Shown: one piece after another, positions 3,359-50,131 of the stretch
Layout: each line of letters starts with the position of its first letter
How positions within the stretch are numbered: position 1 is the first letter of the stretch
From: Beijerinckiaceae bacterium
GTDB lineage: Bacteria; Pseudomonadota; Alphaproteobacteria; Rhizobiales; Beijerinckiaceae
Reading direction: 5' to 3'
Assembly (NCBI GenBank): GCA_947475995.1
Contig: CANJNI010000022.1
Span: 2,018 to 66,017, forward strand
Length of the DNA stretch: 64,000 bases
Translations under genes and position numbers: made by a program
The notes under the pieces: generated by a model
What the model saw: only the letters and a program-made list of their open reading frames with translations
Databases searched by the model: none
Told to the model about the DNA's origin: nothing

Positions 3359-4381
3359 TTACGGCCGGATCACCTTCGCCATGCGCTCCACCATTTCCCT
3401 GGGGGCGGCATAGAGCTTGTTCACATGGGTGGCGACGTATTCGCCGTCTCTCGGATTGATTTCGAGATGCGCCCTGGCGGCCTCGTCAAGCAGTTCGGGG
3501 TCCTGAACGGCCTTGTCGAAGGCGGCGCGCAGCAGTTTCACCGCTTCCGGCGGCGAACCCGGCGGAACAATGAACACGCGCTGGAAAATCTGTTCCGTAA
3601 CGATCAGCTCCAGCAGCGGCTTGTCGGCCGGTTCGACGAAATCCCAGAGAGGGGGTACGCCGAGGGCCGTGAGGGACGGCTTCGGTTCCAAGCCGATCTG
3701 GACGAACACATTGCCCTTGCCGCCGCTGATGAAGTCCGGACGCAGCGTGTTCACGGCGCTGTAGTCGAGGCCGCAGATCACATCCGACTCGCCGCGATCG
3801 AGCGCCATGAACATTTCGTTCGGGCCCGGATAGCCGGTGACGATCTTGAATTTCGTCTTCGCGAGAGAGTTCAGCAGGCGCGCATAGGCGCCGGGCTGCG
3901 TTGCGCCGACGATGAATTCGTTGGTCTGCACATCCTTCATGGTCTTGGCTTTGGAGCCCGCCAGGCTGAAGCACAGCCGTGCGCCGCTGTCCGCTGTGCC
4001 CAGATATTCGAACTTCGTCGGATCATAGCGCCCGCGAAGGCTCTCGGTGAACAGCGGATCGACGAGCGCCCCCGGAATCACGAGGCCGATATAGGTGCCG
4101 TCCTTGGGGGCCAGCGTGTACATGAATTCTGCGGCGCGCAGGCTTCCGGCGCCCGGCATGTACTGGAAAACCTGTCCGGGCTGGCCGGACAGATGTTTCG
4201 ACATGTAGCGCGTGATCAAACGCGCATATGCATCGTAGCCGCTGCCGGCCGTGTTGCCGACGATGACGTTGAACCGCTTGCCCTGATAAAAATCCTGGGC
4301 CTGCGTCGTCGTCGCCTGAAGGCCTGCCAGAAGGCCGAGGGCCAGTCCGGCGATCTTGCCCCAATTGCTGCGCATGTTCAT
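3359..4381 (-). CDS. Tripartite tricarboxylate transporter substrate-binding protein (TctC/Bug family)
   Basis: Signal peptide, GNTAGSGYDAYAR, MPGAGS, APKDGT, YPG..E...A..RGE motifs. Confidence 0.9.
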   Translation of the reverse strand: MNMRSNWGKIAGLALGLLAGLQATTTQAQDFYQGKRFNVIVGNTAGSGYDAYARLITRYMSKHLSGQPGQVFQYMPGAGSLRAAEFMYTLAPKDGTYIGLVIPGALVDPLFTESLRGRYDPTKFEYLGTADSGARLCFSLAGSKAKTMKDVQTNEFIVGATQPGAYARLLNSLAKTKFKIVTGYPGPNEMFMALDRGESDVICGLDYSAVNTLRPDFISGGKGNVFVQIGLEPKPSLTALGVPPLWDFVEPADKPLLELIVTEQIFQRVFIVPPGSPPEAVKLLRAAFDKAVQDPELLDEAARAHLEINPRDGEYVATHVNKLYAAPREMVERMAKVIRP

Positions 4382-5031: not shown

Positions 5032-6297
5032 CTATTCGGCGGCGACAGCGCGGTCGTGGATGCCTTGCCGGAAATTCGCCTTGTCGGAAACCAGATAGCT
5101 GCGCACGACAATGTCGTCCATCCGGGCCTTCTGCGGATCGTGGATCCGCCCCTGCGGTTCCTTTCCGGCGGCCATGTCGGCGATGCCTTGCAGGATGAAG
5201 CGACGTGCCGCCACAACCGCCATGTCGCTGTACCCCAGCCGCTCCTTCGAGCGATCGTAGATCGGCCCCATGCTCTCGGTGACGAAATTGTCGTGAACAG
5301 AGAAGGAGGGGCCGAGACCCGCGAACCACCGGTCCTTCATCTCCTCGCGATCCTGCAGATAGCGATTCTCCCTCGTTCTCCGGTTTTGCAGATCGGTTCC
5401 GGGAATGACGTGAAGCTCGTAAACCTTGCGCAGCATCTCGTGGTTGATCGGCCCGCTGCGCTTGAAGTTGACCATGTACTTGATGTGCAATGTGTCGGTG
5501 ACCGGTACATGCCACAGGGCCGTATAGCCGTCATCGCCAGTCGGTCCCGCCACGATGGCGAGGTTCGGCCCGACATAATTCGTCACGCGCAGATAGGCGC
5601 GCTCGCCGAGTTCGCGGATCGTGAAAATGCGAAGTCCGAAATCCATACGGTCGATTTCCATGCGCGGCGTGCCGTTCACATAGAATTCGTAGAACTGGTC
5701 GACCGTGCCGGGCGCTGCGCCCGCATCCAGACTGGTCAGCGCCTTGTGCAGAAAATTCAGATGGAAGGGGTCGATGTCGCCTTCCAAAGCCTGCAGATAA
5801 TTGCAGTTCTCACGGAATTTCCAGATGTGAACCTGCTCGGGCTTCGCGCGCAGGACCTCATGTTCGGGAAACAGCGGCGGCTCGCCTTCTCCCAGATAGG
5901 CGAAGATCATCCCCGCGGCTTCGCGGCACGGATAGGCCGTGTGCCGCACATGCTGGCAGAACTGCTTGCCGCGCGGCTCGGCCGGTTGTTCCAGACACTG
6001 GCCGGTCACATCGAAAACCCAGCCGTGATACACGCAGCGAAGTCCGCCGCCCTCGATGCGCCCGTAGCTCAGATCGGCGCCGCGATGCGGGCAATTGATC
6101 GGCATAAGTCCGAGCCTGCCGAACTCGTCGCGAAACAGGACCAGTTCCTCGCTCATGATGGTCAGCGGCAGGGGCGCGCCATTGGCCGGAAGATCGCTGG
6201 CGAGCGCGACAGGTTGCCAGTATGCGCGCAGCAGCTTGCCGCCCGGCGTGCCCGGCGCGGTCAGAGTCATCAGGTCGTTTTCAGCCTTCGTAAACAT
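5032..6297 (-). CDS. Rieske non-heme iron oxygenase alpha subunit (phthalate 4,5-dioxygenase/LigX-like group)
   Basis: Rieske motif CPHRGADL...CVYHGW; mononuclear Fe motif EGDIDPFHLNFLH plus a distal Asp in VHDNFVTESMG. Confidence 0.9.
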   Translation of the reverse strand: MFTKAENDLMTLTAPGTPGGKLLRAYWQPVALASDLPANGAPLPLTIMSEELVLFRDEFGRLGLMPINCPHRGADLSYGRIEGGGLRCVYHGWVFDVTGQCLEQPAEPRGKQFCQHVRHTAYPCREAAGMIFAYLGEGEPPLFPEHEVLRAKPEQVHIWKFRENCNYLQALEGDIDPFHLNFLHKALTSLDAGAAPGTVDQFYEFYVNGTPRMEIDRMDFGLRIFTIRELGERAYLRVTNYVGPNLAIVAGPTGDDGYTALWHVPVTDTLHIKYMVNFKRSGPINHEMLRKVYELHVIPGTDLQNRRTRENRYLQDREEMKDRWFAGLGPSFSVHDNFVTESMGPIYDRSKERLGYSDMAVVAARRFILQGIADMAAGKEPQGRIHDPQKARMDDIVVRSYLVSDKANFRQGIHDRAVAAE

Positions 6298-6429
6298 GAG
6301 GCGTTTCTCCGCTCGGGCGCTTGTGCGTCTCGTCCTGTTGCTCGCTTGGCCTGCTGTGCAGGTCTTCGTTGCAGGCTGCAGGATAGCAGAGAAAAATGCG
6401 GATATGCGGAAACGCGAAAATGACCGGGC

Positions 6430-7283
6430 TTAGGCGGACAGCGCCGCGCGTGGTCCGGTTCCGCCAAGCTTGCGCGTGACCTCCGCAGCCGCCTCCCGAA
6501 TGATCCGGGCGGGCGCTCCGTCGGGGGTGGTGTCCATGAAGCCCGCCGAACCGACCAGCGTCATGGCGATCGCGAGTCGACCCCGGTGATCGAAGATCGG
6601 CGCCGATACAGCCGCGAATTCGCGGACGCTTTTGCCGATCGTGAAAGCCATGCCGTCGGCGATCACATGCCGCCGCATCGCGTCGATGTCGTCGGCCGGG
6701 GGGGCGGCGCGCCAATGATCTGCTCATCCCACTCGCGCAACTCCTGATTGATGCGCGCCTGCGTTTCCTGCGGCGTCAGATAGGCAAGGAAGATTCGGCC
6801 CGAGGCGGTGCGCAGAAGCGACAGGGTGCGGCCTTCGCGTGTGCGCACGGCAGAATCGAGATGGGCCGTCTCACTGCGGATTACGGTCGGCCCGTAGCTG
6901 CCCCAGACGCTGATCGACGACGTGAGGCCGGTCCGGTGGGTGATTTCCACAAGCTTTTCGGTTGCTAGCTTCACCCCGTCGAGTCGCGAGACGGCCGTGA
7001 CGCCCAGTTCGACGAGTTGCGAGCCGAATTCGTAGCGGCCCGTATAGGGATCGTGGCTGACGAGTTCGGTCAGCACGAGGCCCATGAGATAACGATGGGC
7101 GCGGGGAGGGGACATGGCCGCCGCCGCAGCGATCTCGGTCAGCGTGGAAGGGCGGCCAAGGCGGGCCATCACCTTCAGCAGCGAGACTCCGACCACAATC
7201 GAGCGGTTGCCGTGACGCGGCATGGCCGCCGCAGAGCGGACGTCTTCGGAATCGGAGGATCCGCGCTTTTTGGCCGGCGGCAT
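6430..7283 (-). pseudogene. IclR family transcriptional regulator interrupted by a frameshift in a G7/C7 run (6698-6704)
   Basis: HTH half (RSIVVGVSLL...LTEIA...RAHRYL) in one frame and the effector-domain C-terminus (AAVSAPIFDHRG) in the next; adding one base restores ...GAPPPPADDIDAMRRH... Confidence 0.85.
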
Positions 7284-7975: not shown

Positions 7976-8178
7976 AAACAGGCCCCGGACGGGCGCTTTT
8001 TGGTTAAGCGAATTTCATAATAAACCGCTGATTTACTTCATCAATCGTTCACCCCAATAAGTAAACGGCGCATTCATGCTGTTATTTAAACTCGTCTTCA
8101 TTCGACCCTCCTATGGTCAGCCTACAACGAGCCGAGCCGATAACGAGCGAAGGCCAGGGTAACGTGACGGGGTGTGTG

Positions 8179-8691
8179 ATGAATACTGCGTTGAAAGCTG
8201 AAGTGGCGCATCCGCGCGCTGACCGTATCAAGGAAGTACGTCCGGCTTATCTTGAAGCGTTGACGCTTGTGGAACGTCTTCATCGTCGGCTTCTGGACGT
8301 CATCAAGGATGAATTCGACCGTCGCGGCCGCAGCGACATCAACGCCGTGCAGGCGCTGTTGCTTTACAACATCGGCGACAAGGAACTGACGGCCGGCGAA
8401 CTGCGCACGCGCGGTTACTATCTCGGCTCGAACGTCTCCTACAACGTCAAGAAGCTGGTCGAGATGGGTTACCTCCATCATGCCCGCTCGCGCGTGGACC
8501 GCCGCTCGGTGCGCATCAGCCTCACCGAGAAGGGCAAGGGCGTTCACGAGATCGTCTGCTCGCTCTACGAAAAGCATGTGCTGACCGTGGAACAGATCGG
8601 CGGCATCTCCTGTGAGGAATTCCAGCGGCTCAACCAGGCCCTGTCGCGTCTAGAACGCTACTGGACCGACCAGATCCGCTACCGGCTGTAA
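8179..8691 (+). CDS. ldtR: MarR family regulator, LdtR type
   Basis: YLEALTLVERLHRRLLDVIKDEF, ELRTRGYYLGSNVSYN and terminal WTDQIRYRL; near an L,D-transpeptidase and glyA. Confidence 0.8.
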   Translation: MNTALKAEVAHPRADRIKEVRPAYLEALTLVERLHRRLLDVIKDEFDRRGRSDINAVQALLLYNIGDKELTAGELRTRGYYLGSNVSYNVKKLVEMGYLHHARSRVDRRSVRISLTEKGKGVHEIVCSLYEKHVLTVEQIGGISCEEFQRLNQALSRLERYWTDQIRYRL

Positions 8692-8712
8692 TCTCAAGCC
8701 ACCGGTCAGGCC

Positions 8713-8742
8713 AAAAGGGCTCGCCGAAAGGCGGGCCTTTTT
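8713..8742 (+). terminator. Intrinsic terminator after ldtR
   Basis: aaaagggctcgcc-gaaa-ggcgggccttttt hairpin followed by T runs. Confidence 0.8.
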
Positions 8743-8825
8743 GCTTTTTGCTGAATGGATCGTTGAAGTCCTGATTGCGCCGCGCGCCGCTTCCCGCCAG
8801 ACTGGCGGGCGAAACGGAGCACCAC

Positions 8826-9170
8826 ATGCGCGGACCAAATGATGTCGGCGGAACGCCGGACGGGCCGGTCGATCCGGAACCGCACAGCCTGACCTTCTGG
8901 GAAAAGCAGATCGACGCCCTGCGCGGCGTCATCGGCGGCAAGAAGATCGTCCTGACCGACGAGAACCGCCGTTACGTCGAGGCGCTTGGCGACGATGTTT
9001 ACAATACATTGACCTATTACCAGCGCTGGACTGCGGCCCTGTCGCGCCAGATGGTCGACAAGGGCATCCTGACGCAGGACGAGATCGACGCGAAGGTGGC
9101 CGAAATCCGCGCCCGCCTCGCGGCCGATGGCGAACTCGACGTCGAGGCGCTCGCGAAGGAGCGGCTGTGA
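8826..9170 (+). CDS. Thiocyanate hydrolase beta-like subunit (N-terminal half of nitrile hydratase beta)
   Basis: G.NDVGG, WEKQIDAL, DENRR..E.L..D.Y..LTYYQRW, KGILT.DEI; GGAG RBS; GTGA overlap with the next gene. Confidence 0.8.
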   Translation: MRGPNDVGGTPDGPVDPEPHSLTFWEKQIDALRGVIGGKKIVLTDENRRYVEALGDDVYNTLTYYQRWTAALSRQMVDKGILTQDEIDAKVAEIRARLAADGELDVEALAKERL

Positions 9171-9472
9171 GCGCGCTCCGCACCGGCGACTATGTCATCG
9201 TCCGCGACGATTTTCCGCCCGGCCATGTGCGCACGCCGGTCTATGTGCGCGGCAAAAGGGGCAGGGTGGTCCGCAAGCTCGGCGAATTCCAGAACCCCGA
9301 ACTGATCGCCTACCGGCTGGAAGGGCCCGCCAAAGCCCTGTTTGCGGTGCGCTTCGCCCAGACCGACCTGTGGCCGGACTATCGCGGCCCGCGCGGCGAT
9401 ACGGTCGATCTCGATCTTTACGAACACTGGCTGACGCCCGCCGGGCCCGAGCCGGAGGAGCAGCAGGCATGA
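9167..9472 (+). CDS. Thiocyanate hydrolase alpha-like SH3-like subunit (C-terminal half of nitrile hydratase beta)
   Basis: GD.V.V......GHVRTPVYVRGKRG, LFAVRF...DLWPDY, DLYEHWL. Confidence 0.85.
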   Translation: MSALRTGDYVIVRDDFPPGHVRTPVYVRGKRGRVVRKLGEFQNPELIAYRLEGPAKALFAVRFAQTDLWPDYRGPRGDTVDLDLYEHWLTPAGPEPEEQQA

Positions 9473-10170
9473 GCGGCGGCGACCACGACCATCATCATCA
9501 CGATCACGACCATTGCGAGGACGATCATTGCGATGATCCCACGCACCACCACGGCCACGATCACGGACACGCCCACGCGCCGCCACAGCCCGATGACCGG
9601 GTGAGTTCCTATCACCAGATCCTCGGAATCGCCCTGAAGGAACTGCTGATCGAGAAGGGGGTCGTGACGCCGGAGGAGCTGCGCGCCGCCATCGAGAAGC
9701 GCGAATCCGCCTCCCCGGCCGATGGCGCGAAGATCGTCGCCCGCGCCTGGACGGACCCGGACTATCGCCGCCGCCTGCTCAAGGACGCGAATGCGGCCGT
9801 CGCCGAAATGGGGGTCCCGATGACCACGACCCATCTGGTGGCGGTGGAGAACTCCCCCGCCGTCCACAATGTCATCGTCTGCACCCTGTGCTCCTGCTAC
9901 CCGCGCGAACTGCTGGGCCTGCCGCCCGCCTGGTACAAGAGCCGGGCCTATCGGGCCCGCGTGGTGCGGGAGCCGCGCGCGGTCCTGGCGGAATTCGGCA
10001 CGAAATTGCCGCCGGACGTCGAAGTCCGGGTCCACGATTCCACCGCCGACATGCGCTATCTGGTCATTCCCCGCCGCCCGGCGGGCACCGAGGGCATGAG
10101 CGCCGACGACCTGGCCGCGCTGGTCAGCCGGGACTCGATGATCGGGGTGGCGACCGCAAAGGCTCCATAA
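9469..10170 (+). CDS. Nitrile hydratase alpha / thiocyanate hydrolase gamma subunit, Co-type, with a His-rich N-terminus
   Basis: VCTLCSCYP metal motif, GAKIVARAWTDP, VHDSTADMRY; ATGA overlap with the previous stop. Confidence 0.9.
   Translation: MSGGDHDHHHHDHDHCEDDHCDDPTHHHGHDHGHAHAPPQPDDRVSSYHQILGIALKELLIEKGVVTPEELRAAIEKRESASPADGAKIVARAWTDPDYRRRLLKDANAAVAEMGVPMTTTHLVAVENSPAVHNVIVCTLCSCYPRELLGLPPAWYKSRAYRARVVREPRAVLAEFGTKLPPDVEVRVHDSTADMRYLVIPRRPAGTEGMSADDLAALVSRDSMIGVATAKAP
9481..9576 (+). repeat. His/Asp-rich low-complexity coding tract (15 His and 2 Cys in 32 codons)
   Basis: DHDHHHHDHDHCEDDHCDDPTHHHGHDHGHAH read directly from the sequence. Confidence 0.9.
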
Positions 10171-10399
10171 GGGTCCGGGGAATGCGCGTCCGGAGCCTCA
10201 CACCCCCGTGATCGCGCCCCAATTGCGGCGCTTCGCCACAAAACTGCCTTGCTGGTCGTTCCATGTGATTCTCGAACATGGTAACCCTATGGTTGCTTTT
10301 TGGGGCCTATGGTCGGGGTCAATCCCTATCGGGAAAGTCCCCGGCGTGGACCGACTGTCCGGCCGATTGCTGTTTGAGCCGACCGCATTGGAGCATGCC

Positions 10400-11713
10400 T
10401 TGCTGAAGTCGCAGAACCTCTTGTCCCGCCGCGCCTTTGCGCGCAGCCTTGGATGGGGCGTCGCCACCCTCGCCACCGCCCGTTTCACCGATGCTTTCGC
10501 CGCGCCCGCCGATGGTCAGTGGGGCAATCAGGCCGAATGGGTGCAGAAATACGATGCCGACGAGCGTCTGGCGGTTCCTCGCGCCACCACGCCGCTCCTC
10601 TCGCAGGCCACCGTCGCCCAGACCGAGCAGGCCATTGCGCTGTATCGCGACCTCGCCTCGCGCGGCGGCTGGGGCGTCGTGCCGGCCGGCAGCATGAAGG
10701 TCGGTTCGCGCGGCAACAATGTCGTGGCCCTGCGCCGTCGCCTGATCGCCTCGGGCGATCTGGACGCCTCGACCGGCCAGTCGCCGGTGTTCGATTCCTA
10801 TGTGGAAGCCGGCGTGAAGCGCTTCCAGGCCCGACACGGCATCGGCACGACCGGCGTGGTCGCCCAGCAGACCGTGCAGGCTCTCAATGTCCCGACCGCC
10901 GAGCGGCTTCGCCAGCTTGAGACCAATCTGGTGCGCCTGCGCAGCTTCTCGGGCAATCTGGGCGCGCGCCATGTCATCATGAACATTCCGGGCGCGGAAG
11001 TTCAGACCGTCGAGGGCGGAGTCATCCAGACCCACCATGCGGCGGGCGTCGGCAAGATCGACCGCCAGTCGCCGGTCATGCAGGCCAAGGCGCTGGAAAT
11101 CAATTTCAACCCGTTCTGGACCGTTCCGGCCTCGATCATCCGCAAGGACCTGATCCCCAAGATGCAGGCCGATCCGAACTACCTGACGGACAACAAGATT
11201 CGCGTGATCAACGGGTCGGGACAGGAAGTCTCGCCGCAGTCGATCAACTGGAATTCGATGGAAGCCACCAATTTCCGCTTCCGTCAGGACCCGGGCGGCG
11301 ATTTCAACTCGCTCGGCTTCGTGCGCATCAACATCGCCAATCCTTATGGCGTCTACATGCATGACACGCCCGCCAAGGGCATTTTCGGCGACGACTTCCG
11401 ATTCGTGTCGTCGGGCTGCGTCCGTGTCCAGAACGTGCGCGACTATGTGGCCTGGCTGCTCAAGGACAATCCGGGCTGGGACCGCAACAAGATCGACGAG
11501 GCGATCCGCTCCGGCCAGCAGGTCTCGGTCAAGCTGACGCCCGCCGTCCCGGTTTACTGGGTCTACATCACCGCCTGGGCGAACGAAGGCATCGTCCAGT
11601 TCCGCGAGGACATCTACAAGCGCGACGGCGCCGGCGGCGCGGTCGCGTCCGCCAAGGGCGCCCCGAAGCCGATCAACGGGCAGGTCGTCAGCGACGAGGA
11701 TTTCGACGAATAA
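10400..11713 (+). CDS. L,D-transpeptidase (YcbB/LdtP-like) with a peptidoglycan-binding domain and probable Tat signal
   Basis: TTG start after GGAG; SRRAF twin-arginine motif; PG-binding segment (VKRFQARHG); YkuD motif VYMHDTP...SSGCVRV. Confidence 0.9.
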   Translation: MLKSQNLLSRRAFARSLGWGVATLATARFTDAFAAPADGQWGNQAEWVQKYDADERLAVPRATTPLLSQATVAQTEQAIALYRDLASRGGWGVVPAGSMKVGSRGNNVVALRRRLIASGDLDASTGQSPVFDSYVEAGVKRFQARHGIGTTGVVAQQTVQALNVPTAERLRQLETNLVRLRSFSGNLGARHVIMNIPGAEVQTVEGGVIQTHHAAGVGKIDRQSPVMQAKALEINFNPFWTVPASIIRKDLIPKMQADPNYLTDNKIRVINGSGQEVSPQSINWNSMEATNFRFRQDPGGDFNSLGFVRINIANPYGVYMHDTPAKGIFGDDFRFVSSGCVRVQNVRDYVAWLLKDNPGWDRNKIDEAIRSGQQVSVKLTPAVPVYWVYITAWANEGIVQFREDIYKRDGAGGAVASAKGAPKPINGQVVSDEDFDE

Positions 11714-40361: not shown

Positions 40362-41108
40362 TCAGGTGCGACCGTCCGGCTTTCCGGCCTTATTCTTCAG
40401 CATGTATTCCATGAAGATCGCCATGAAGGCGGGCATCCGGTCCGCCTGCAGGTCTGCGGCGCTGCGGATGATGTGCATGCGCGAAAGTTCGGGCTGATCC
40501 TGCGTGGCAAGCCAATCCGAAATGCGCGCTTCCGCTGTCGCGGCGTCCATGTCGAGTTCGCAAATGCTCATGCAGGCGATCTGCGCGCCTCGGAAGATCA
40601 CGATGCTGCCGGGCGCGACCCGCACATCGGATGGCGCGAGGCCGGTCTCTTCCTCCATCTCGCGCAGCACGCTGCCCGGAAGATCGAGCCGGTCCGCCAC
40701 GACATCGTCGAGGTCCGGCGTGCCGGCGGGACTGTAGATCTGCCCCGCATTTGCCGTGTGCGGCCCCATCTCGCCGAGGAGAAACGTGCCGTCGGATGAG
40801 CGCAGCACCGCCATTGCGAAACAATTGGCGGCGCTCCTGTCCGGAAAGCCGAGCTGCTGGCTGACGAAGAGATTCTTGTAGCCGGTGACGAAGAACCGCG
40901 CGGCGAAAACGCGCTCGTGGCCGCGTTGCTCGACCGTTGCGTCATGCGCCAGCAGGATCGGCCCGTTGAACATTTTCGGCTTGAGGGCGACGGCCTCGTT
41001 CCAGCGCGCGTCGATCATCGCCGCATTGTCTTCCGCATAGGCCCAGCGCCACGGCTCCACGATGCAGTCGAGACGGTCCACATGTTCGATGCGGTGTGGC
41101 AGGCTCAT
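40362..41108 (-). CDS. NUDIX hydrolase
   Basis: REMEEETGL Nudix box; overlaps the phzF stop. Confidence 0.85.
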   Translation of the reverse strand: MSLPHRIEHVDRLDCIVEPWRWAYAEDNAAMIDARWNEAVALKPKMFNGPILLAHDATVEQRGHERVFAARFFVTGYKNLFVSQQLGFPDRSAANCFAMAVLRSSDGTFLLGEMGPHTANAGQIYSPAGTPDLDDVVADRLDLPGSVLREMEEETGLAPSDVRVAPGSIVIFRGAQIACMSICELDMDAATAEARISDWLATQDQPELSRMHIIRSAADLQADRMPAFMAIFMEYMLKNKAGKPDGRT

Positions 41109-42007
41109 GCGTCGATGGTTCCCTGTGCGACCATCACGGCTGCGCCGCCGATGGAGGCGTCGACCAACTGGCCGTCCTCCATGTCCAGGCCGAGCGTGAT
41201 GAGGCTCGGGCGGGCCATCTCGAATCCCTGCTCGATGACGAATGTATGGTTGCCGTCCGGCGGGTGGTCGAAATGCGCCACCACGCCCGCAAAGGCCGCG
41301 ACGGCCGAGCCGGTGGCAGGGTCTTCCATCACGCCGAGCGAGGGCGCGAACATGCGCGCGTGGAAGGCGCTGCCTTCATGCACTGTTTCGCGCGTGTAAA
41401 CGAACGCATTGGGATGATCGCCCGGTCCGATGGCCTTGTGCCAGTGCTCCATGAGAGGCCGCGCGCGCGCTGCCGCCTCCGCCGATTTCACAGGCACGAA
41501 CGTGAAGCCCAGCCCGGCCGACCAGACCATCGGGAAATGCCTGTCGCAGCCGATATCCTCCGGCTCAAGCCCGAGCGCTGCTGCAATCAGCACGTCATCG
41601 GCCGCCTGTGCGATTTCCACCGGCTCGGTGGGAAGCTGGAAATGGGCGCGCGCGGCGCGTCCTTTCGCCTGGCGCACCGTGCAGGCGACGTTTCCCACAT
41701 CCTCTTCCAGCACGACCGAGAGCGTCGGCATTCCGGGCGCATCCAGTTGCGCGATCAGCACCGCCGTCCCGATGGTCGGGTGACCCGCGAAGGGCAGTTC
41801 CCGCTGTGGCGTGAAGATGCGCACCCGCGCCGTATTGACCGGATCGCGAGGCGGCAGGACGAAGACGGTTTCGGACAGGTTGAACTCGCGCGCGACCGCC
41901 TGCATGCGCTCCGCCGACATGCCTTCTGCGCCGCGCACGACCGCCAGCGGGTTTCCGGCGAAAGGCGTCTCGGTGAAGACGTCGAGAATGTAGTAATTCC
42001 GCTTCAT
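41105..42007 (-). CDS. PhzF family isomerase
   Basis: [37 protein letters not shown]. Confidence 0.92.
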
Positions 42008-42154
42008 GCGAATCTCCGGCGTCAGGATAGCCCGCGCGGCCGGACCGGCACAACCGCCCTTTAGCTGACGTTTTGACTTGGGCCTCGCTTTCCCTGTAGG
42101 CGAAGCAAAGGGCGGCGGCCATAATGCGCCCGCCACGAAGCCAGCAGGGAAGAG

Positions 42155-43135
42155 ATGCCCGTTCAGGTTCTGATGCCTGCCAGGATGCAGCAGTTCGCCA
42201 TCGACGAACTGGACGCGGCCTGCCACCTTCACAAGCTCTGGGAAGAGCCCGATCAGGAGACCGCGCTGGAGCGGCTCGCGCCTGACATCGAAGTGATGAT
42301 CGTCAGTGGCTGGGCGCGCAAGATCGACGCCGCCCTGATGAAGCGTTTTCCTAAGTTGCGCATGATAACCATCACGGGCGCAGGCTACGACAAGATCGAC
42401 GCGGTTTATGCGGGTGAGAACGGCATCGTGGTGACGAACGCCGCGCAGGCCCTGAGCGAAGACGTGGCCGACATGGCCATGGCCCTGTTCCTCAACGCGG
42501 TGCGTCAGATTCCGCAGGCCGAGCGTTTCATGCGCGACGGCAAATGGATCGCCGGCAATTATCCGCTCGCCTCCAGCCTGCGCGACCGCACGATGGGGAT
42601 CGTCGGTCTTGGCCGGATCGGCAAGGCCATCGCCCGCCGCGCAGAAGCCTTCGGGGTGAGGGTCGTCTATGCGGGCCGGACCCGGCAGGATGGCGTCGCC
42701 TATCCGTATTTCGCCAGCGTCGAGGACATGGCGAAGAAATGTGACACGCTGGTCATGGCGCTGCCCGGAGGGCCGGAGACCGATCGCCTCGCTAGCCGCA
42801 CAGCGCTTGAATCGCTTGGCCCGCAGGGCGTTTTCGTTAATATCTCGCGCGGCTCGGTAGTGGACGAAACAGCGCTGCTCGATCTTTTGCGGACGAAAAA
42901 GCTGCTCGCCGCCGGCCTCGATGTGTTCATGAACGAACCGAAGATCGACCCCGCCTTTTACGAACTCGACAATGTGGCGCTGTCGCCCCACTGGGCCGCC
43001 GGCACCCATGCGGCGCGCGGTATGGGCCAGCGCATCGCCTGCAACAACGTCCTGTCATGGATTGCCGGGAAAGGTCCGCTTGACCCGGTGCCCGAAACGC
43101 CCTGGCCGCAGACCGGACTGCGCGGGCGGGCCTGA
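42155..43135 (+). CDS. D-2-hydroxyacid dehydrogenase
   Basis: GLGRIG, NISRG, LDVFMNEP, SPH. Confidence 0.9.
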   Translation: MPVQVLMPARMQQFAIDELDAACHLHKLWEEPDQETALERLAPDIEVMIVSGWARKIDAALMKRFPKLRMITITGAGYDKIDAVYAGENGIVVTNAAQALSEDVADMAMALFLNAVRQIPQAERFMRDGKWIAGNYPLASSLRDRTMGIVGLGRIGKAIARRAEAFGVRVVYAGRTRQDGVAYPYFASVEDMAKKCDTLVMALPGGPETDRLASRTALESLGPQGVFVNISRGSVVDETALLDLLRTKKLLAAGLDVFMNEPKIDPAFYELDNVALSPHWAAGTHAARGMGQRIACNNVLSWIAGKGPLDPVPETPWPQTGLRGRA

Positions 43136-43167: not shown

Positions 43168-44190
43168 ATGAACCGCAAGACATTGACTGCGACGCTGGCG
43201 GCATCGCTGTTTGCGACGGCCTCCGTGGCGGCGACTCCCGAACTCATCGCGGCCGCCAAAAAGGAAGGTCAGGTCGTCTGGTACACGGTCCAGACCATTC
43301 CGCAGATCGTGCAGCCGCTCGTGACGGCTTTCGAGAAGACCTACGGGGTCAAGGTCAATTACGTCCGCGCCAACTCGTCCGAGGTGACGCTGCGCATCCT
43401 CAACGAGGCGAAGGCGGGGCGCAGCCTGTCGGATGTGTTCGACGGCACCGGCACGACACCGCCGCTGAAGCGCGAAAACCTCGTGATGAAATGGCTGCCG
43501 GACGAGACCGCAAGCTGGCCGAAGGAACTGGTCGATCCGGAAGGCTACTGGGTCGCCACCAATTTCTTCGTGAACACGGTGGGGATCAACACCGCACTGG
43601 TGCCGCCCGCGCAGGAACCCAAAAGCTGGGACGATCTGCTCGATTCGAAATGGAAGGGCAAGATGGTCTGGGGCTCGCAGACGTCGAGTTCAGCCGGCCC
43701 GGGATTCGTCGGCCTGACGCTCAAGGCGCGAGGCGAGAAGGACGGAATGGAATTCCTGCGCAAACTGTCGGGCCAGTCCATCGCCGCAATGCCGGTTGCG
43801 GCGCGGCAGGTGCTCGATCAGGTCATCGCAGGCGAATATCCGATAGGCCTGATGATCTTCAATCATCACGCCGTCATCAGCGCCCAGCAAGGCGCGCCGG
43901 TGAAATGGCTGCCGGTGAGCCCCGCCACCGTGACCCTGAACGTCGCGTCCGTGGCGCGCGATGCGCCGCATCCGAATGCGGCGAAACTCTTCCTCGACTA
44001 CATGATCTCCGCAGAAGGCCAGAAGATCTTCGCCGACAACGATTACCTTCCGGCCAATCCGAAAGTTTCGGCCAAGGACAAATCGCTGATCCCGGACGGT
44101 GTGACCATCAAGCGCATGGCCTTCACGCCCGAGGAAATTGAGGACAATATGCCCGCGTGGAACAAGACATTCCGCGAAATTTTCCGCTAA
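43168..44190 (+). CDS. ABC transporter substrate-binding protein (AfuA/FbpA-like structural class)
   Basis: Signal peptide, AAKKEG.VVWY, VIAGEYPIG, APHPNAAKLF. Confidence 0.85.
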   Translation: MNRKTLTATLAASLFATASVAATPELIAAAKKEGQVVWYTVQTIPQIVQPLVTAFEKTYGVKVNYVRANSSEVTLRILNEAKAGRSLSDVFDGTGTTPPLKRENLVMKWLPDETASWPKELVDPEGYWVATNFFVNTVGINTALVPPAQEPKSWDDLLDSKWKGKMVWGSQTSSSAGPGFVGLTLKARGEKDGMEFLRKLSGQSIAAMPVAARQVLDQVIAGEYPIGLMIFNHHAVISAQQGAPVKWLPVSPATVTLNVASVARDAPHPNAAKLFLDYMISAEGQKIFADNDYLPANPKVSAKDKSLIPDGVTIKRMAFTPEEIEDNMPAWNKTFREIFR

Positions 44191-44218
44191 CGCCAAGAGT
44201 TCAGGGGATACACAAGAC

Positions 44219-46315
44219 GTGAGCGACGCGCCCATTCAGTTCCGTTCGGTTGACAGCATCCTGCGGCCGAAGTCCATCGCCATCGTGGGCGCTTCGGAGC
44301 GAGGCCGCTGGCCGAGGGACATCTTCAATTCGCTTAAGTCGCAAGGCTATGCGGGAAATGTCTATCTGATCAACCCGCGTCAGGCCGAAGTCTATGGCGA
44401 AAGGGCTTATCCGTCGTTGCGCGATCTTCCCGAGGCGGTGGATCATGCGATCGTGATCATTCCGGCCGGGGGCATTCAGGACGTGCTGAGCGACGCGAAG
44501 GCGCGCGGCATGAAGTCGGCCACGATCTATGCAGGCGGCGTCGGCGATGGCGAGAATCCGGCATCGGTCGCGCGCGGCGCATGGGTGCGGGATTTTCTGA
44601 AGAACTCCACCATGCGGCTGGCGGGACCAAACTGCATGGGAGGCTTCTCGTTTCGCGAGAAGGTCTTCGCCTATCCCAATCAGGAGATCGCGAAACTCCC
44701 TGCGGGCCAGACGGGCGTCGTCTTCCAGTCGGGCGGCACGTTGCAATTCTTCCTGCGCAGCGGCGCGAACCGTGGACTGCGTTATTCCTATGCCATCTCG
44801 TCAGGCAACGAGATCGACTGTGATCTTTCAGACTACTTGAACTTTCTGGTCGATGATCCGCACACGAAGCAGATCGTCCTGTTCATCGAGGGCATTCGCA
44901 ATCCGGCGACGTTCATGCACGCGGCCGGCAGGGCGCTCGCGGCGGGCAAGCCGATCATGACGATCAAGACCGGCGCGACCGCGAAATCCGCTCACGCGGC
45001 CGCCTCGCACACAGGGGCCATCGCGGGCGATTATGCCGCCTACGAGGCCATGTGCGACCGCTTCGGCATCATCAACTGCAAGTCGCTTGACGATCTGATC
45101 GAGACCGCGCTTGCGTTCCAGACGCTGGTGAAGCCGAAGGGTCCGAAGATCGGGTTCGTCACCACATCGGGCGGCACGGTCGATCTGCTTTACGATTATG
45201 TAGAGTTTGAAAACGCATCGCTCGCGCAGTTCGGCGAGGAGACGAACGCCGCTTTGCGTCCCTACATGCAGGACGAAATCAATCCGAAGAACCCGCTCGA
45301 TGTGGGCATTCCGTCGACCATGAAGGCCGCCGCAGATATCTGCGAGATCGTCGGGCGCGATCCCGATGTCGATATTCTGGCATGGGCAAGCCAGTTGCCG
45401 GCGAAGAAGACCGCTTTGCCGGACTGGATGGTTGTGCGCGAAATGGCCGAGCGCCTTGGCAAGCCGGTGATCGGCTTCGGCCGCATGTCCTACCAGCTCA
45501 CGTCGGAGTCGCTCGAGATGCAGGAGGCTCTGGGCATTCCGTTCCTGCAGGAGTTGCAGCCGACGCTGCGCGCCATCAACGCCACATGGTTCCATGCGCA
45601 GCGCACCGGCAAGCTCCCCGTCGTGCCCTCGAAGGCTCCCGCCAGCGATCTGTCGCCTGAAAATCTCGACGCGACCTTGGCGCGCTACGGGATCGAGGGA
45701 CCGAAGAGCAAGGTTTGCGCGGACGCCGATTCAGCCGCCGCATTCGCGCAGCAGATTGGCTTTCCCGTCGTGGTGAAGATCCAGTCGCGCGACATTCTTC
45801 ACAAGACGGAAGCGGGCGGCGTCGTGCTCGATCTTCGCAACGTCGATGCGGTGAAAGCCGCCTGCGCAAATCTTGTCCAGTCCGCGAGGGCCGCTTATCC
45901 GGCCGCGCGGATCGACGGCTTCCTCGTTCAGGAAATGGTGTCGGGCGTCGAGGCGATTGTCGGCGCGCGGGCCGATGCGCTTTACGGCCCCATGCTGCTC
46001 ATCGGCTCCGGCGGCGTCTTCGTCGAACTTCTGGAAGATGTTGCGCTTGCCATGTTGCCGGTAGATGCAAAACGCATCGGCGAAATGGCGGACCGCCTCA
46101 AGCTCGCGCGGCTGCTCGCCGGCTACCGCGGCAAGCCTGCGGCGGACCGTGCGGCCTTCGAGGAAACCGTCGCATCGCTCGGTCAGTTCTTTCTCGACCA
46201 TCGCGCTAAGATCGGAGACATCGAAATCAATCCGCTCATGGTGCGTCCCGACGGAAAGGGCGTCGTGGCGGTGGACGTGCGGGTGATCTGGAAAGATCAG
46301 CAACCCGCGCATTGA
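44219..46315 (+). CDS. ADP-forming acyl-CoA ligase (acetate-CoA ligase family), copy 1
   Basis: IAIVGAS CoA-binding start, GPNCMG, QSGG, phospho-His in SHTG, ATP-grasp with HKTEAGGV and EINPL. Confidence 0.9.
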   Translation: MSDAPIQFRSVDSILRPKSIAIVGASERGRWPRDIFNSLKSQGYAGNVYLINPRQAEVYGERAYPSLRDLPEAVDHAIVIIPAGGIQDVLSDAKARGMKSATIYAGGVGDGENPASVARGAWVRDFLKNSTMRLAGPNCMGGFSFREKVFAYPNQEIAKLPAGQTGVVFQSGGTLQFFLRSGANRGLRYSYAISSGNEIDCDLSDYLNFLVDDPHTKQIVLFIEGIRNPATFMHAAGRALAAGKPIMTIKTGATAKSAHAAASHTGAIAGDYAAYEAMCDRFGIINCKSLDDLIETALAFQTLVKPKGPKIGFVTTSGGTVDLLYDYVEFENASLAQFGEETNAALRPYMQDEINPKNPLDVGIPSTMKAAADICEIVGRDPDVDILAWASQLPAKKTALPDWMVVREMAERLGKPVIGFGRMSYQLTSESLEMQEALGIPFLQELQPTLRAINATWFHAQRTGKLPVVPSKAPASDLSPENLDATLARYGIEGPKSKVCADADSAAAFAQQIGFPVVVKIQSRDILHKTEAGGVVLDLRNVDAVKAACANLVQSARAAYPAARIDGFLVQEMVSGVEAIVGARADALYGPMLLIGSGGVFVELLEDVALAMLPVDAKRIGEMADRLKLARLLAGYRGKPAADRAAFEETVASLGQFFLDHRAKIGDIEINPLMVRPDGKGVVAVDVRVIWKDQQPAH

Positions 46316-46322
46316 GGACCCA

Positions 46323-47495
46323 ATGACCACCATCGCCGCGACCGGACAGTTGCTGACGCACGGGCGTCTGGACCTTGCGTCGGCTAGGTCGCGGCGATTG
46401 CAGGCTTTCCTGAGCGAGGCCGATTGCACAATCGGCAATTTCGAAGGCACGGTCGAATCGCCCGGCGCATGGCCGACGAAAACCAAGACGCTGCATCTGG
46501 CGACGCCCGATGCGCTGAATTCAATCCGCGAGTTGGGTTTCGACGCCGTCACCCACGCTAATAATCATTCATTCGATCTAGGGCCGCCCGGAATTGCGAG
46601 CACGAAAGCGGCGGCGCTCGCGGCAGGCCTCGCTTTCGGCGGCAGCGGGATGACCATCGACGAAGCCGCTGCGCCCGCCATCGTGGAGCGCGCTCGCAAA
46701 CGCATTGCGACGCTGGCGTTCTGTCTCGGCCCACAGCCCGACATCGTTTATGCGTCGAGGGATCGCGCCGGCATTGCGCCGTTGCGGATGCGCCGCGCGG
46801 TCGCAATGCCCGATGCGGAATTCGAGGCGTTTCGCCGCGTTGCGAGCGGGTTGGGCGACGATCTGCGCGAGAAGAACCGCAGTCGCATGGGCTATCGGCA
46901 GGAAGCGCTGGCGGACGACCAGACCGAAGTCTTCGGCGCTGCCATCCGTCGTGGTTCTGCGATTGCGCCCGAATGGTCGGCGCACCCGGGCGATCTCGAT
47001 GCATTCAACTCGAAGCTGGCGCAGGCCTGCTCCGAGGCTGATCTGGTGGTGGTGGCGGTGCATTCGCACCATTGGGACCCGGACTGGTCGCGCACGCCGA
47101 AATGGCTACATCAACTCGCCTGCGGGTTGATCGACCGTGGCGCACACATGGTGGTCGGCACCGGTTCGCCCGTGGTGCAGCCGGTGGCGTTCCATCGCGG
47201 TCGCCCGATCCTTGGCGGACTTGGCAATCTGATCTTCCACACGGCCCGCAGCGGAACCTATGACCGCGAGGGCGTCAGCGTCTGGGACAGCATCGCGTGC
47301 CGCGCGCGGTTCAACGATGCAGGCGAGTGCGACGAACTCGCCATCATGCCGGTGGTGGTGGGCCGCCCGGACGCCGGCCCGAACGGATTGCCGGTCGGCC
47401 CGCAGGCGCACGAAGGAAGAGCGGCGGAAGACCTTTTCAAAAAAACAACCGCGACCCTCAGTGAAGAGGATCGCGGTCGCGTCAGGCTCGTCTGA
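46323..47495 (+). CDS. CapA/PGA_cap metallophosphatase-fold protein with degenerate metal motifs
   Basis: IGNFEG, HANNHSFDLG..G, VHSH, LGNLIF. Confidence 0.8.
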   Translation: MTTIAATGQLLTHGRLDLASARSRRLQAFLSEADCTIGNFEGTVESPGAWPTKTKTLHLATPDALNSIRELGFDAVTHANNHSFDLGPPGIASTKAAALAAGLAFGGSGMTIDEAAAPAIVERARKRIATLAFCLGPQPDIVYASRDRAGIAPLRMRRAVAMPDAEFEAFRRVASGLGDDLREKNRSRMGYRQEALADDQTEVFGAAIRRGSAIAPEWSAHPGDLDAFNSKLAQACSEADLVVVAVHSHHWDPDWSRTPKWLHQLACGLIDRGAHMVVGTGSPVVQPVAFHRGRPILGGLGNLIFHTARSGTYDREGVSVWDSIACRARFNDAGECDELAIMPVVVGRPDAGPNGLPVGPQAHEGRAAEDLFKKTTATLSEEDRGRVRLV

Positions 47496-49064
47496 TTATT
47501 TTGCGATTGAGGCGTCGACGGCCGTCGTGTCTTCGGCCTTCGAGGGCTTGTAGTTGATCGTCGCCTTGCCGGCCCAGTGCACCTTCTGCCAGTAGAGCGG
47601 CACGACCGGCACGTCCGCAAAGCCCATGCGGGTCGCTTCCTGGAACAGCGCGAGGCGCTTGTTCAGGTCGAACTCCGAGAAGCCTTCCTTCATCTTGGCG
47701 TCGAAGGCGGCATTGGTGTAGCGCAGGCGATTGAATGCGCCTGTGCCTTCCTTCGCGTCAAAGGTCATCAGCAGGTTCTTGAGGCCGGGGCCGCTCGTCG
47801 GCGTCGTATTGCCGAGCGAGAAGATGAAGACCGAGAACATCTGCTTCGTCGCATTGCCCGCATAGACGTTATAGGGCTGCGCGACGACTTCGTTCACCTT
47901 GATCCCGCCGCGCGCAAGCATCTGGCCGATGGCCTGCGCTGTGCCGGAATCGCCCGGGAAGCGGTCGTTTGACGTATGGATCGTCAGGCCGAACCCGTTT
48001 GGATAGCCGGCTTCCGCCATCAGCTTCTTGGCGCCGTCCGGATCGTAAGCCGGCACCTTGATCGAAGGATCGTGGCCCGCAACGCCCTCCGGCACCAACT
48101 GACCGGCCGCGAGGCCCGAGCCATTCAGAATACGGTCGATGATCAGGTCGCGATTGATCATTTTCGAGATCGCTTCGCGCACCTTGAGGTTCTTCAGCGG
48201 GTTCGGAACCAGCGGCTTGCCGTCCGTGGTGGTGATGAACGGGGCTTCATCGCGTACCGTGTCGAGCGCCAGATAGATCATGCGGGCGGAGGCGGTGGAA
48301 TAAACCTTGTAGCCCGCCATCTTGGCGATGCTCGCGGCGTCTTCCGGCGGCACGGCGTCGATCAGGTCCACGCTGTTTGAACGTAGCGCTGCGATGCGCG
48401 CGGCGTCGTTCGAGATGACGCGGATCGTGGCGTTCTCGAAGTCCGGCTTCTTGCCCCAGTAGTCGTTGTTGCGCGTCAGGACGACCCGGTCGCCCTTCGC
48501 CCAGGACTTGAACTTGTAGGGGCCGGTGCCGATGGCGGCCGCGCCGCTGTTGAAATCTTCGAGCTTCTTGCCTTCTGCGGCCTTCTTGGAAACGACGAAG
48601 ACCGAGCCGATCTGCTCGATGAAATCGGGCGTGGGGCCCTTTGTGGTGAACTCGATCGTCAGCGGATCGACGATCTTCATCTCCGCGATGGACGCCACAT
48701 TGCCCGTGAAGGGCGCGGGGCTGTTGGGAATGTTTCCGGCGCGCGAGAGCGAAAACACCACGTCGTCCGCCGTCAGCGGCGAACCGTCATGGAATTTCAC
48801 ATTGGCCCGGACCTTGATGAGCCATTTGTTCGGCGCGATGTTGGTCCAGGCCTCGGCGACTGCCGGATATTGCTGCAGGTTCTCGTCGATGCCGGCGATG
48901 CGGTCGAAAATCTGCATCGCGATGTTCTGGTTGTTGCCCGTGCGCGAGAAATGCGGGTCGATCGCCGATGTTTCGGTCGAACTGGCGATGGTGATGTCAA
49001 CCGCGAGAGCCGGGGTGATTCCCATCGCAAAAACCAGTGCGAGGGCAGGGCGGACGTAAGCCAT
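47496..49064 (-). CDS. ABC transporter substrate-binding protein, dipeptide/oligopeptide family 5
   Basis: IDPH, VKFHDGSPLTADDVVFS, IGTGPYKF, NDRFPGD. Confidence 0.9.
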   Translation of the reverse strand: MAYVRPALALVFAMGITPALAVDITIASSTETSAIDPHFSRTGNNQNIAMQIFDRIAGIDENLQQYPAVAEAWTNIAPNKWLIKVRANVKFHDGSPLTADDVVFSLSRAGNIPNSPAPFTGNVASIAEMKIVDPLTIEFTTKGPTPDFIEQIGSVFVVSKKAAEGKKLEDFNSGAAAIGTGPYKFKSWAKGDRVVLTRNNDYWGKKPDFENATIRVISNDAARIAALRSNSVDLIDAVPPEDAASIAKMAGYKVYSTASARMIYLALDTVRDEAPFITTTDGKPLVPNPLKNLKVREAISKMINRDLIIDRILNGSGLAAGQLVPEGVAGHDPSIKVPAYDPDGAKKLMAEAGYPNGFGLTIHTSNDRFPGDSGTAQAIGQMLARGGIKVNEVVAQPYNVYAGNATKQMFSVFIFSLGNTTPTSGPGLKNLLMTFDAKEGTGAFNRLRYTNAAFDAKMKEGFSEFDLNKRLALFQEATRMGFADVPVVPLYWQKVHWAGKATINYKPSKAEDTTAVDASIAK

Positions 49065-49396
49065 TTTGGCTCCTTGCGAAAAAAGACGACCGGATCGACC
49101 GTCCGGCGGCGGATGATTGTTCGGCGGTGAACAAATTGCAAGAAGCCGGGCAGCTATTTCGACTGCGCGGCTTGTTAACGCCTTCAGGGCGCCTGGCACA
49201 CGAAGGAAGCCGCGCTTTCCACGCCGCCGTCGCGGTATTTGGCGCATTTCCAGGTGTCGAATCGGCCAAACCCGATCCCGCCGCCGCAATGGGTCCCGCC
49301 CGGCGCGGCCACTTCTCCCTCGCGGCAGTGCGGCTGCCGGAAGTTGTTATACCATAGAATAATATTGTGCAGCCGCGCTTGCGCAAGGGGAGCGCG

Positions 49397-50131
49397 TCAG
49401 GCCGTCGCCAGCAGCATCCCGTGGCCCTGAATGGGCTTCCAGTCGTTCAGCTTGTGCATGACGCTCCAGACCATCGAGGGCTGGTTGGTGATGACGGGCT
49501 TTCGGAACTCTTCTTCGAGTTGGTCGGCCACATTGGTCACCAGCCAGCTGCCGCCGCCGATATAGACGGCATCGCAATCGGGGTTTTCCAGAAAGGCGCG
49601 CTTGCCGAGCTCATAGGCAAGCCGCGAATGGTCCTTGGCGGCGATCTTCTGGAAGTCTGACGGGGCGATTTCCTTGGTGACCTGACCGCAGACCGAAACG
49701 CCCTCGCGGCCGAGAAACTGCGCCAGCGTGGCGTTCATCGCGTCGGACCATTTGTTGACGCAGGCGACCTTTTTCAGCCCCATGTGGCGGCAAGCGCGCG
49801 CCACCGCATCGACGGTCGTGGCGGCGGGTTTGCCTGTGTAGGTCTGCATCCGGTCGAGCAAACGGTCGTGTCCGTCCAGACCCAGCACCAGCGGCAGCGG
49901 CACGCCGTTCTGCATGATGGCGTCGATGCCGCGCTCCATCAGCGAATCCATGTAGGATTCCAGCGGCGCGAAGATGCGGTCCATGTCGGCGGCTGAAAAC
50001 TCCTTGAGCCCCAGCGGGATCATCACCAGCATGTAATTCGATGGAAACAGATGGATCAGCTCATAGGCCGATACATCGATCACGTTCAGCGGCTGCAGGC
50101 TGCCGATGGAGAATTTTGGATCTTCGAGCAA
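49397..50131 (-). CDS. Asp/Glu/hydantoin racemase - maleate isomerase/arylmalonate decarboxylase family protein lacking the catalytic cysteines
   Basis: Family layout with PVIT.N..M.W at the end; probable TTG start after GGGAGG. Confidence 0.7.
   Translation of the reverse strand: MLEDPKFSIGSLQPLNVIDVSAYELIHLFPSNYMLVMIPLGLKEFSAADMDRIFAPLESYMDSLMERGIDAIMQNGVPLPLVLGLDGHDRLLDRMQTYTGKPAATTVDAVARACRHMGLKKVACVNKWSDAMNATLAQFLGREGVSVCGQVTKEIAPSDFQKIAAKDHSRLAYELGKRAFLENPDCDAVYIGGGSWLVTNVADQLEEEFRKPVITNQPSMVWSVMHKLNDWKPIQGHGMLLATA

Follow-up and report, generated by a model that had tools for sequence, protein, structure and literature searches.

Three coupled genes of a Beijerinckiaceae bacterium encode a nitrile hydratase-family enzyme that is probably a relative, rather than a member, of the thiocyanate hydrolases

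Three adjacent genes at positions 8826-10170 of a 64-kb stretch of DNA from a Beijerinckiaceae bacterium (the window, by which the whole of that stretch is meant; all positions are window coordinates) encode an enzyme of the nitrile hydratase (NHase) family. A sequence-only reading of the window had drawn attention to two features, namely an NHase beta chain divided between two coupled genes ahead of an alpha-like chain and an arginine directly after the metal-binding motif CSCYP, and had proposed that the product was a thiocyanate hydrolase (SCNase) or a related anion-nitrile hydrolase. The question that this locus raises is which of these enzymes the three genes encode. Comparison of the sequences points to a cousin of SCNase, neither an orthologue nor a member of that family. 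The window enzyme belongs to a large, already annotated and barely studied group, in which division of the beta chain goes with the Arg after CSCYP and with a double Arg in the beta chain (the "RR" motif).

A nitrile hydratase-family enzyme encoded by three genes

The first gene (bN, 8826-9170, on the forward strand as are the other two, 114 amino acids (aa), ATG start) encodes the N-terminal half of an NHase beta chain and is the counterpart of ScnB of SCNase and of AnhD of the Streptomyces canus NHase. It is followed by bC (9167-9472, 101 aa, GTG start), the C-terminal, SH3-like half of the beta chain and the counterpart of ScnA and AnhE, and then by the gene of the alpha-like catalytic chain (9469-10170, 233 aa, ATG start), the counterpart of NHase alpha and ScnC. 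The stop codon of bN overlaps the start codon of bC as GTGA, and that of bC overlaps the start of the alpha-like gene as ATGA. Ribosome-binding sites are predicted for all three (GGAG at 8816-8819, 6 nt before the start of bN; AAGGAG at 9156-9161 for bC; GGAGGAG at 9454-9460 for alpha), and the genes form an intact, translationally coupled unit. Both halves of the beta chain scored above the thresholds of their Pfam half-domain models, bN on NHase_beta_N (PF21006, 3e-19) and bC on NHase_beta_C (PF02211, 1.9e-18); together with the overlaps, this bears out the divided beta chain that had been read from the sequence. On TIGR03888, whose cut-off is 152.2 bits, bN reached 56.8 bits (model positions 1-99) and bC 68.0 bits (positions 140-226). 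The best PDB match of bN was the SCNase beta chain (2dd4_B, 3e-10), the next being the Pseudomonas putida NHase beta chain (4.5e-7), and bC matched residues 132-219 of the P. putida NHase beta chain at 2.8e-10 and the SCNase alpha chain at 5e-8.

The alpha-like chain matched Pfam NHase_alpha at 9.4e-84. It passed the NHase alpha equivalog TIGR01323 (271 bits, cut-off 249.85) and failed the SCNase gamma equivalog TIGR03887 by 76 bits (215.3 bits, cut-off 291.45). A genuine ScnC, taken for comparison from a locus of the Thioalkalivibrio type, scored 393.3 bits on TIGR03887, passing by 100, and 199 bits on TIGR01323. Other Arg-type alpha chains scored 252-272 bits on the NHase alpha model and 210-231 on the SCNase gamma model. 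Amongst PDB entries, the alpha chains of cobalt-type NHases (Co-NHases) were matched at 1e-63 to 1e-65, as against 2.8e-53 for ScnC, and identity was 55-60% to canonical Co-NHase alphas and 43-44% to ScnC.

The motif V-C-T-L-C-S-C-Y-P-R was found where the sequence-only reading had placed it, at 9877-9906 (residues 137-146 of alpha), with Arg146 standing in place of the Trp of canonical Co-NHases. Its Cys-Thr-Leu-Cys-Ser-Cys-Tyr claw has the counterpart CSLCSCTAW in the Fe-type enzyme 2QDY. Thr and Tyr in the claw distinguish Co-type from Fe-type NHases. Judged by these two residues and by the comparison with 2QDY, the enzyme is predicted to be of the cobalt type, and the earlier description of a cobalt enzyme made of three polypeptides in scnB-scnA-scnC order appears to be sound.

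Catalytic and pocket residues were placed by alignment to solved NHase and SCNase chains. The conserved beta residues Arg52, Glu56 and Tyr68 and the GH-R...Y-RGK segment of bC are all present. The residues of note in bN are Leu43, Asn47, Arg48-Arg49, Glu52, Tyr64-Tyr65 and Trp68, the codons of Asn47-Arg48-Arg49 lying at 8964-8972 by alignment to NHase and SCNase beta chains. Arg48 is the conserved NHase beta Arg52, and Arg49 is an additional Arg common to the Arg-type clade and SCNase, both of which read "x-R-R" where canonical NHases read "F-R-H/F". Asn47 aligns with NHase beta Phe51 and SCNase beta Arg90; across seven aligned loci of the window family this position is Asn, or Ser in one (L002; loci are given by their L numbers where needed). 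The hydrophobic pocket residues Leu43 and Trp68 are kept. Judged by these alignments, the pocket is unlike that of the industrial NHases (alpha Trp replaced by Arg146, beta Phe51 by Asn47) and also unlike that of SCNase, which has Arg at both positions.

Comparison with thiocyanate hydrolase

The gamma chain of Thiobacillus thioparus SCNase (2dd4_C) reads VVCTLCSCYPRPIL, in which Arg136 comes immediately after CSCYP, as the sequence-only reading had stated. Arg146 of the window enzyme pairs with this Arg136 within an ungapped BLASTP block, and the equivalence of the two residues, for which that reading had named an alignment as the check, is confirmed. Chain C of PDB entry 3VYG is the R136W mutant of the SCNase gamma chain. 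A variant of the Pseudonocardia thermophila NHase alpha chain (3VYH_A) scored 4 bits above the wild type against a W-to-R query, as would be expected of the reciprocal (W-to-R) mutant. In the study behind 3VYG and 3VYH, beta Arg90 and gamma Arg136 reportedly govern the substrate selectivity of SCNase jointly.

Of the features by which SCNase is told apart, the window enzyme seems to have only the gene order and this one residue. Genuine SCNase gamma chains form a tight clade, the 120 best matches to ScnC all being at least 77% identical to it. In the BLASTP alignment, ScnC has 12 extra residues (the gamma insertion) relative to the window alpha chain. The alignment of bN begins at ScnB residue 45 and that of bC at ScnA residue 37; the 44-aa N-terminal extension of ScnB is absent from bN and the ~33-36-aa extension of ScnA from bC. 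In a genuine scn locus (L091), scnBAC is accompanied by cynS and a LysR regulator, by an activator-like gene of 141 aa, by an ABC transporter of the NMT1 type, by CbtAB for cobalt uptake and by DsrE/TusA/FCSD. The P15K-like activator and the thiocyanate context (cynS, transporter, cobalt uptake and sulfur oxidation) are features of L091 that the window does not share, and neither was seen in L081, L084, L088, L089, L090, L094, L095 or L096. About 40 further open reading frames (ORFs) of the 64 kb were scanned against Pfam. No cyanase, carbonic anhydrase/COSase or sox/dsr gene was among them, in agreement with the sequence-only reading, nor any amidase-signature protein or cobalt importer. The DNA of the window was found in lake, freshwater and drinking-water metagenomes; a search for RNA sequencing runs turned up none that could be used. 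Searches of the open literature gave nothing usable on heterotrophic SCNase or on ToyJ.

Two further features were considered as marks of SCNase and rejected. A split beta chain in B-A-C order is no proof of SCNase, given that AnhDEA of S. canus has that order, and its value as a hallmark is also weakened by the Trp-type loci L014, L015, L020 and L040, which have split halves. His-rich alpha N-termini occur in ScnC, in other Arg-type alphas and in P. putida alpha; being common in the Arg-type chains and present in P. putida-type Trp alphas as well, they do not single out SCNase.

An Arg-type clade with a divided beta chain

All of the 120 nearest homologues of the alpha chain (64-97% identity) have CTLCSCYPR, followed by D or E (A in one), then L, then L or I. 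Therefore, the Arg motif is no chance feature. Named homologues among these 120 are called nitrile hydratase alpha, and most come from Hyphomicrobiales and Beijerinckiaceae metagenome-assembled genomes (MAGs). A survey of 89 alpha genes from genome, plasmid and contig loci (37 CSCYPR and 52 CSCYPW, or Trp-type) revealed how closely the traits are associated. Both beta halves were detected with 24 of the 37 CSCYPR alphas; they were separate ORFs in all 24 and lay upstream of alpha in 20. In 12 further CSCYPR loci, mostly Roseomonas-type, only bN was detected. The CSCYPW alphas, in contrast, are mostly accompanied by a single fused beta gene, downstream. An extra bN-like (activator-like) match was found in none of the 37 CSCYPR loci and in 7 of the 52 Trp-type loci. 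The window has no additional bN-like ORF and no TIGR03889-type gene.

Several arrangements depart from this pattern. In plasmid clusters of Microvirga terrae, Rhizobium and Azospirillum the order is bC-alpha-bN and the motif CSCYPRPVL, and a Streptomyces plasmid cluster has CSCYPRPVL with the order bN-bC-alpha. Cobalt transporters adjoin three of these clusters, those of Microvirga, Rhizobium and Streptomyces, and the last two also have an aquaporin gene. On the Rhizobium ruizarguesonis plasmid (L086 4588-7120) the CSCYPRPVL cluster is followed directly by the aquaporin gene, accompanied by cytochrome P460 and a divergent CbtAB; on the Streptomyces plasmid (L092 3239-7011) the aquaporin gene again follows directly, and a HoxN cobalt transporter is present too. 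In Salinarimonas sp. NSM (L051 ~5600-6900) a His-rich linker (AHAHHDHDHDHDHDRHDHQHDDHGH) joins bN and alpha into a single reading frame, with bC downstream, which recalls the fused, His-linked NHase of the eukaryote Monosiga. In three Beijerinckiaceae-type relatives with alpha chains 75-76% identical to that of the window, genes for a 2Fe-2S small subunit (150 aa) and a molybdopterin-binding large subunit (~690-720 aa) are inserted between bC and alpha (L088 3591-7696, L089 3594-7696, L094 1527-5696). With this Fer2 and MoCo pair inside the cluster, the hydratase of these relatives may be functionally connected to a Mo-hydroxylase. Two other loci of the window family carry an additional NHase_beta_N-like ORF of 102-107 aa just 5′ of bN (L095 3950-4273, L096 3979-4287), a candidate activator or swapping chaperone. 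In the four Trp-type loci with split halves, the clusters are otherwise canonical (alpha, beta and activator, CSCYPW) and the beta halves lie in different frames (L014 6518-7221, L015 ~5900-6584, L020 6604-7295, L040 6539-7227); this reflects either recurrent, independent splitting of beta at the domain linker or a frameshift common to these MAGs.

Position of thiocyanate hydrolase relative to the clade

Neighbour-joining (NJ) trees were built from 114 alpha cores. The window family (YPR[D/E]L, 17 sequences in the tree) formed a clade with 97% bootstrap. The relation to ScnC, for which the sequence-only reading had called for a phylogeny, depended on the outgroup: a grouping of SCNase with the Arg-type clade received 81% bootstrap as a bipartition when the Fe-type outgroup was left out, but only 46% when it was included, with 38% for SCNase plus Fe-type and the long SCNase branch drawn to the base. 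That basal position was read as long-branch attraction and set aside, the 81% value and the profile scores being in agreement. SCNase gamma chains scored 225 bits against an Arg-clade alpha profile, compared with 200 against a Trp-type one.

Trees and profile scores point the same way as three traits common to SCNase and the Arg-type clade, namely the Arg, the RR motif and the division of the beta chain. It is therefore likely, although not proven, that SCNase is a fast-evolving, derived offshoot of the Arg-type three-subunit clade. By the same sequence comparisons the window enzyme is probably closer to SCNase than the canonical NHases are. SCNase thus appears as one derived branch of the Arg clade, and only its members have a known natural substrate. 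The earlier proposal is supported in part, by the Arg equivalence and this probable kinship. The evidence does not support a thiocyanate hydrolase proper: the alpha chain failed TIGR03887 and is 43-44% identical to ScnC, Asn47 takes the place of an Arg, the insertion and extensions are missing and the genomic context is lacking. Motif and gene order alone over-call thiocyanate hydrolase.

Probable function and alternative readings

The reading that we favour, and that we consider fairly probable, is that the three genes specify a self-contained Co-type enzyme of the NHase family, with a polar pocket and a small polar nitrile as substrate. The pocket combines Arg146 and Asn47 with the retained Leu43 and Trp68, and therefore a small polar nitrile would be expected to be converted to its amide, probably to the exclusion of thiocyanate. 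That nitrile hydration is also the physiological reaction seems reasonably likely. In such an enzyme bN and bC, a beta chain made as two polypeptides, would assemble with alpha, probably as (bN-bC-alpha)2 by analogy with family members. Alpha would bind Co(III) in the Cys138/Cys141/Ser142/Cys143 claw, two cysteines of which are presumably oxidised. These oxidised cysteines would be held by bN Arg48, Glu52 and Tyr64/65 and by the GH-R...Y-RGK segment of bC, with bN Arg48 and the bC Arg as the holding arginines, and water would be added across the C-N triple bond. Maturation may proceed without a separate activator. The His/Asp-rich N-terminal extension of alpha (MSGGDHDHHHHDHDHCEDDHCDDPTHHHGHDHGHAH, 9469-9576) is a candidate built-in cobalt-capturing segment and most likely delivers the metal, and bN may serve as its own swapping chaperone, like AnhD of S. 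canus.

Several points weigh against this interpretation. There is no amidase or nitrile-producing gene nearby, and the neighbours of the family vary and are uninformative. The two beta halves sum to 125 bits on TIGR03888, under the 152-bit cut-off. The assays that would serve as precedent were, by our comparison, made on other three-subunit NHases and not on the YPR[D/E]L/beta-Asn subfamily; the Arg is not established in the characterised chains AnhA and PnhF, whose likeness to the window enzyme is one of layout. Moreover, the nitriles used in published assays are xenobiotics and are little guide to a natural substrate. Finally, the Arg and the beta RR motif are shared with SCNase, and this, with a probable common ancestry, makes SCN- or a small cyano compound a possible substrate.

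That last point can be taken further, as a tentative and rather unlikely proposal. The Arg-type split-beta clade would be the stock from which SCNase came, and its CSCYPR[D/E]L subfamily, with Asn-Arg-Arg in the beta chain, would have as its physiological substrate a small cyano compound of polar or anionic character (trace thiocyanate, cyanide or cyanamide). If true, ordinary heterotrophs would gain an unrecognised route for scavenging nitrogen from C1 cyano compounds.

A narrower version, in which the Arg/Asn pocket is adapted to another tiny or inorganic cyano compound (HCN to formamide, or cyanamide to urea), we regard as unlikely. It would suit a pocket more polar than that of NHases taking aromatic or aliphatic nitriles, and also the wide occurrence of the cluster, unaccompanied by an amidase, among Hyphomicrobiales of oligotrophic freshwater and soil. 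The plasmid Arg-type relatives, moreover, adjoin cytochrome P460 and an aquaporin, through which small neutral solutes pass. However, the aquaporin association belongs to the YPRPVL subfamily and not to that of the window, and the case is circumstantial; the hydrophobic Leu43 and Trp68 are kept, and the literature searched gave no support.

It is more doubtful that the genes encode a genuine thiocyanate hydrolase (SCN- + 2 H2O -> COS + NH3 + OH-) serving nitrogen scavenging in a freshwater heterotroph. Such a role would explain the lack of sulfur-oxidation genes. The scnB-scnA-scnC order, the Co-type motif and the match of Arg146 to gamma Arg136, the very residue chosen for mutagenesis in SCNase (R136W in 3VYG), all speak for it, as do the SCNase beta chain being the closest solved relative of bN, the beta RR motif and His-rich alpha N-terminus in common, and the probable origin of SCNase inside the same Arg-type clade. 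The alpha chain, however, lies 76 bits short of a cut-off that true ScnC exceeds by 100, and its 43-44% identity to ScnC compares with at least 77% inside the true SCNase clade. With Asn47 for beta Arg90, the pocket has only half the positive charge of its SCNase counterpart. The chains lack the gamma insertion and the extensions of ScnB and ScnA, and the P15K-like gene, cynS, the ABC transporter and CbtAB that accompany a real scn locus are all missing. Lakes and drinking water, from whose metagenomes the DNA comes, are not thiocyanate-rich settings.

That the genes are a remnant, inactive or in decay, lodged between ldtR and ldtP, as the absence of an activator or cobalt transporter nearby and an otherwise housekeeping stretch might suggest, is very improbable in view of the intact frames, good ribosome-binding sites and coupled overlaps, the conservation of every catalytic residue, the thousands of strongly conserved homologues and a synteny kept in an 88%-identical relative.

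Genomic context

The three hydratase genes are inserted between a regulator gene and an L,D-transpeptidase gene. Upstream lies ldtR (8113-8691, forward strand), encoding the MarR-family regulator LdtR (NF047395, 285 bits against a cut-off of 250), and downstream the L,D-transpeptidase gene (ldtP, 10208-11713, forward strand, start codon uncertain), assigned by its profile matches (YkuD and PG_binding_1) and followed by glyA, nrdR and ribD. In Sinorhizobium and Liberibacter, ldtR and the transpeptidase gene are neighbours and make up a pair of regulator and target. At 8712-8743 on the forward strand, 3′ of ldtR, there is a terminator-like hairpin (a 14-pair stem with 8 G-C pairs) and then a T-run, CTTTTTGCTG, which would divide the hydratase genes from ldtR. 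Because this terminator lies between them, regulation of the cluster by LdtR was set aside, and the inserted genes therefore probably have a promoter of their own; a sigma-70 scan for a promoter of the insert found none.

The synteny ldtR-bN-bC-alpha-ldtP-glyA is also found in the closest relative (L081, 88% identical), which indicates a stably inherited, functional cluster. A conserved functional neighbour was sought in nine loci of the family and none was found, the contexts being different. Neighbours in other family loci include a chromate transporter with a glyoxalase, methylmalonyl-CoA mutase, and TauD or GST.

Elsewhere in the window, three long ORFs with high GC3 have no Pfam match at 1e-5 (58720-60066 and 60076-61446 on the forward strand, 448 and 456 aa; 3359-4381 on the reverse strand, 340 aa), the first two sitting between an ABC transporter gene and a polysaccharide deacetylase gene. 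Paralogous genes resembling ADP-forming acyl-CoA synthetases (CoA_binding_2, Succ_CoA_lig, ATP-grasp_5) are found at 44138-46315 and 50559-52772, and between them are a PGA_cap-like gene, a family-5 solute-binding protein gene and an arylmalonate-decarboxylase-like gene; the region 44138-52772 may be a small catabolic island. A 634-aa ORF at 41105-43009 on the reverse strand has a PhzF domain over residues 342-630 only, and probably its start is over-called or its N-terminal part is unannotated.

Comparison with known systems

As a kind of system the cluster is not new: annotation pipelines routinely call it nitrile hydratase, and Co-NHases of three subunits without an activator have been published. 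What the comparison adds is a view of the traits that accompany the Arg. A His-tailed design that does without an activator also has practical appeal where NHases are to be expressed heterologously.

Against the SCNase of T. thioparus (ScnB/ScnA/ScnC, 2DD4), the window enzyme has the three chains in identical gene order, VCTLCSCYPR with the equivalent Arg, the beta RR motif, a His-rich N-terminus on the catalytic chain and, probably, common ancestry within the Arg-type clade. It differs in its distant alpha chain, which lies below the TIGR03887 cut-off, in the Asn at beta Arg90, and in having neither the 12-residue gamma insertion, the ScnB and ScnA extensions nor the activator, cynS, transporter and sulfur-gene context. 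The canonical Co-NHases (P. thermophila 1IRE, P. putida 3QXE, Bacillus 2DPP) give the best overall alpha matches (55-60%, E 1e-63) and have the same metal claw and, in the beta chain, the same conserved Arg, Tyr and Glu; unlike the window enzyme they have a single beta polypeptide, Trp after CSCYP, Phe at beta 51 and usually an activator gene.

A divided beta chain is also found in the plasmid-borne enzymes of the Microvirga type. The plasmid NHase of Microvirga flocculans (PnhF), which has beta genes on both sides of alpha, is reported in a review to degrade flonicamid, by hydration (PMC11573777), and its primary description is cited in PMC8278588. Clusters of this type on M. terrae pR24_1 and on Rhizobium and Azospirillum replicons share with the window the split beta chain, the CSCYPR motif, a His-rich alpha N-terminus and an alpha chain ~57-60% identical. 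They differ in the order bC-alpha-bN, in YPRPVL, in Lys at the beta Phe51 position and in the adjoining cobalt transporters, with aquaporin and cytochrome P460 in addition in Rhizobium. The M. terrae homologue, with an alpha chain ~60% identical to that of the window, carries CSCYPRPVL, and by analogy PnhF itself may be expected to have the Arg.

A published counterpart in layout is AnhD-AnhE-AnhA of S. canus CGMCC 13662, a three-subunit Co-NHase without an activator gene, in which cobalt is inserted directly and AnhD acts as metal and swapping chaperone (PMC7329996). Its substrates include acetamiprid, thiacloprid and benzonitrile, whereas indole-3-acetonitrile is not hydrated (PMC7329996). 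AnhDEA comes from an actinomycete, is reviewed as branching with the toyocamycin NHase of Streptomyces rimosus, and has an alpha chain of 21.3 kDa, whereas that of the window is ~25 kDa; it was compared with the window enzyme by its published description. AnhD-Glu56 corresponds to Glu52 of bN (PMC7329996, PMC13243292), and the two systems share the cobalt type, the order beta-N-half, beta-C-half, alpha, and the lack of an activator gene. With separate beta halves, an alpha gene and no accessory gene, the window locus has the same three-subunit, activator-free layout.

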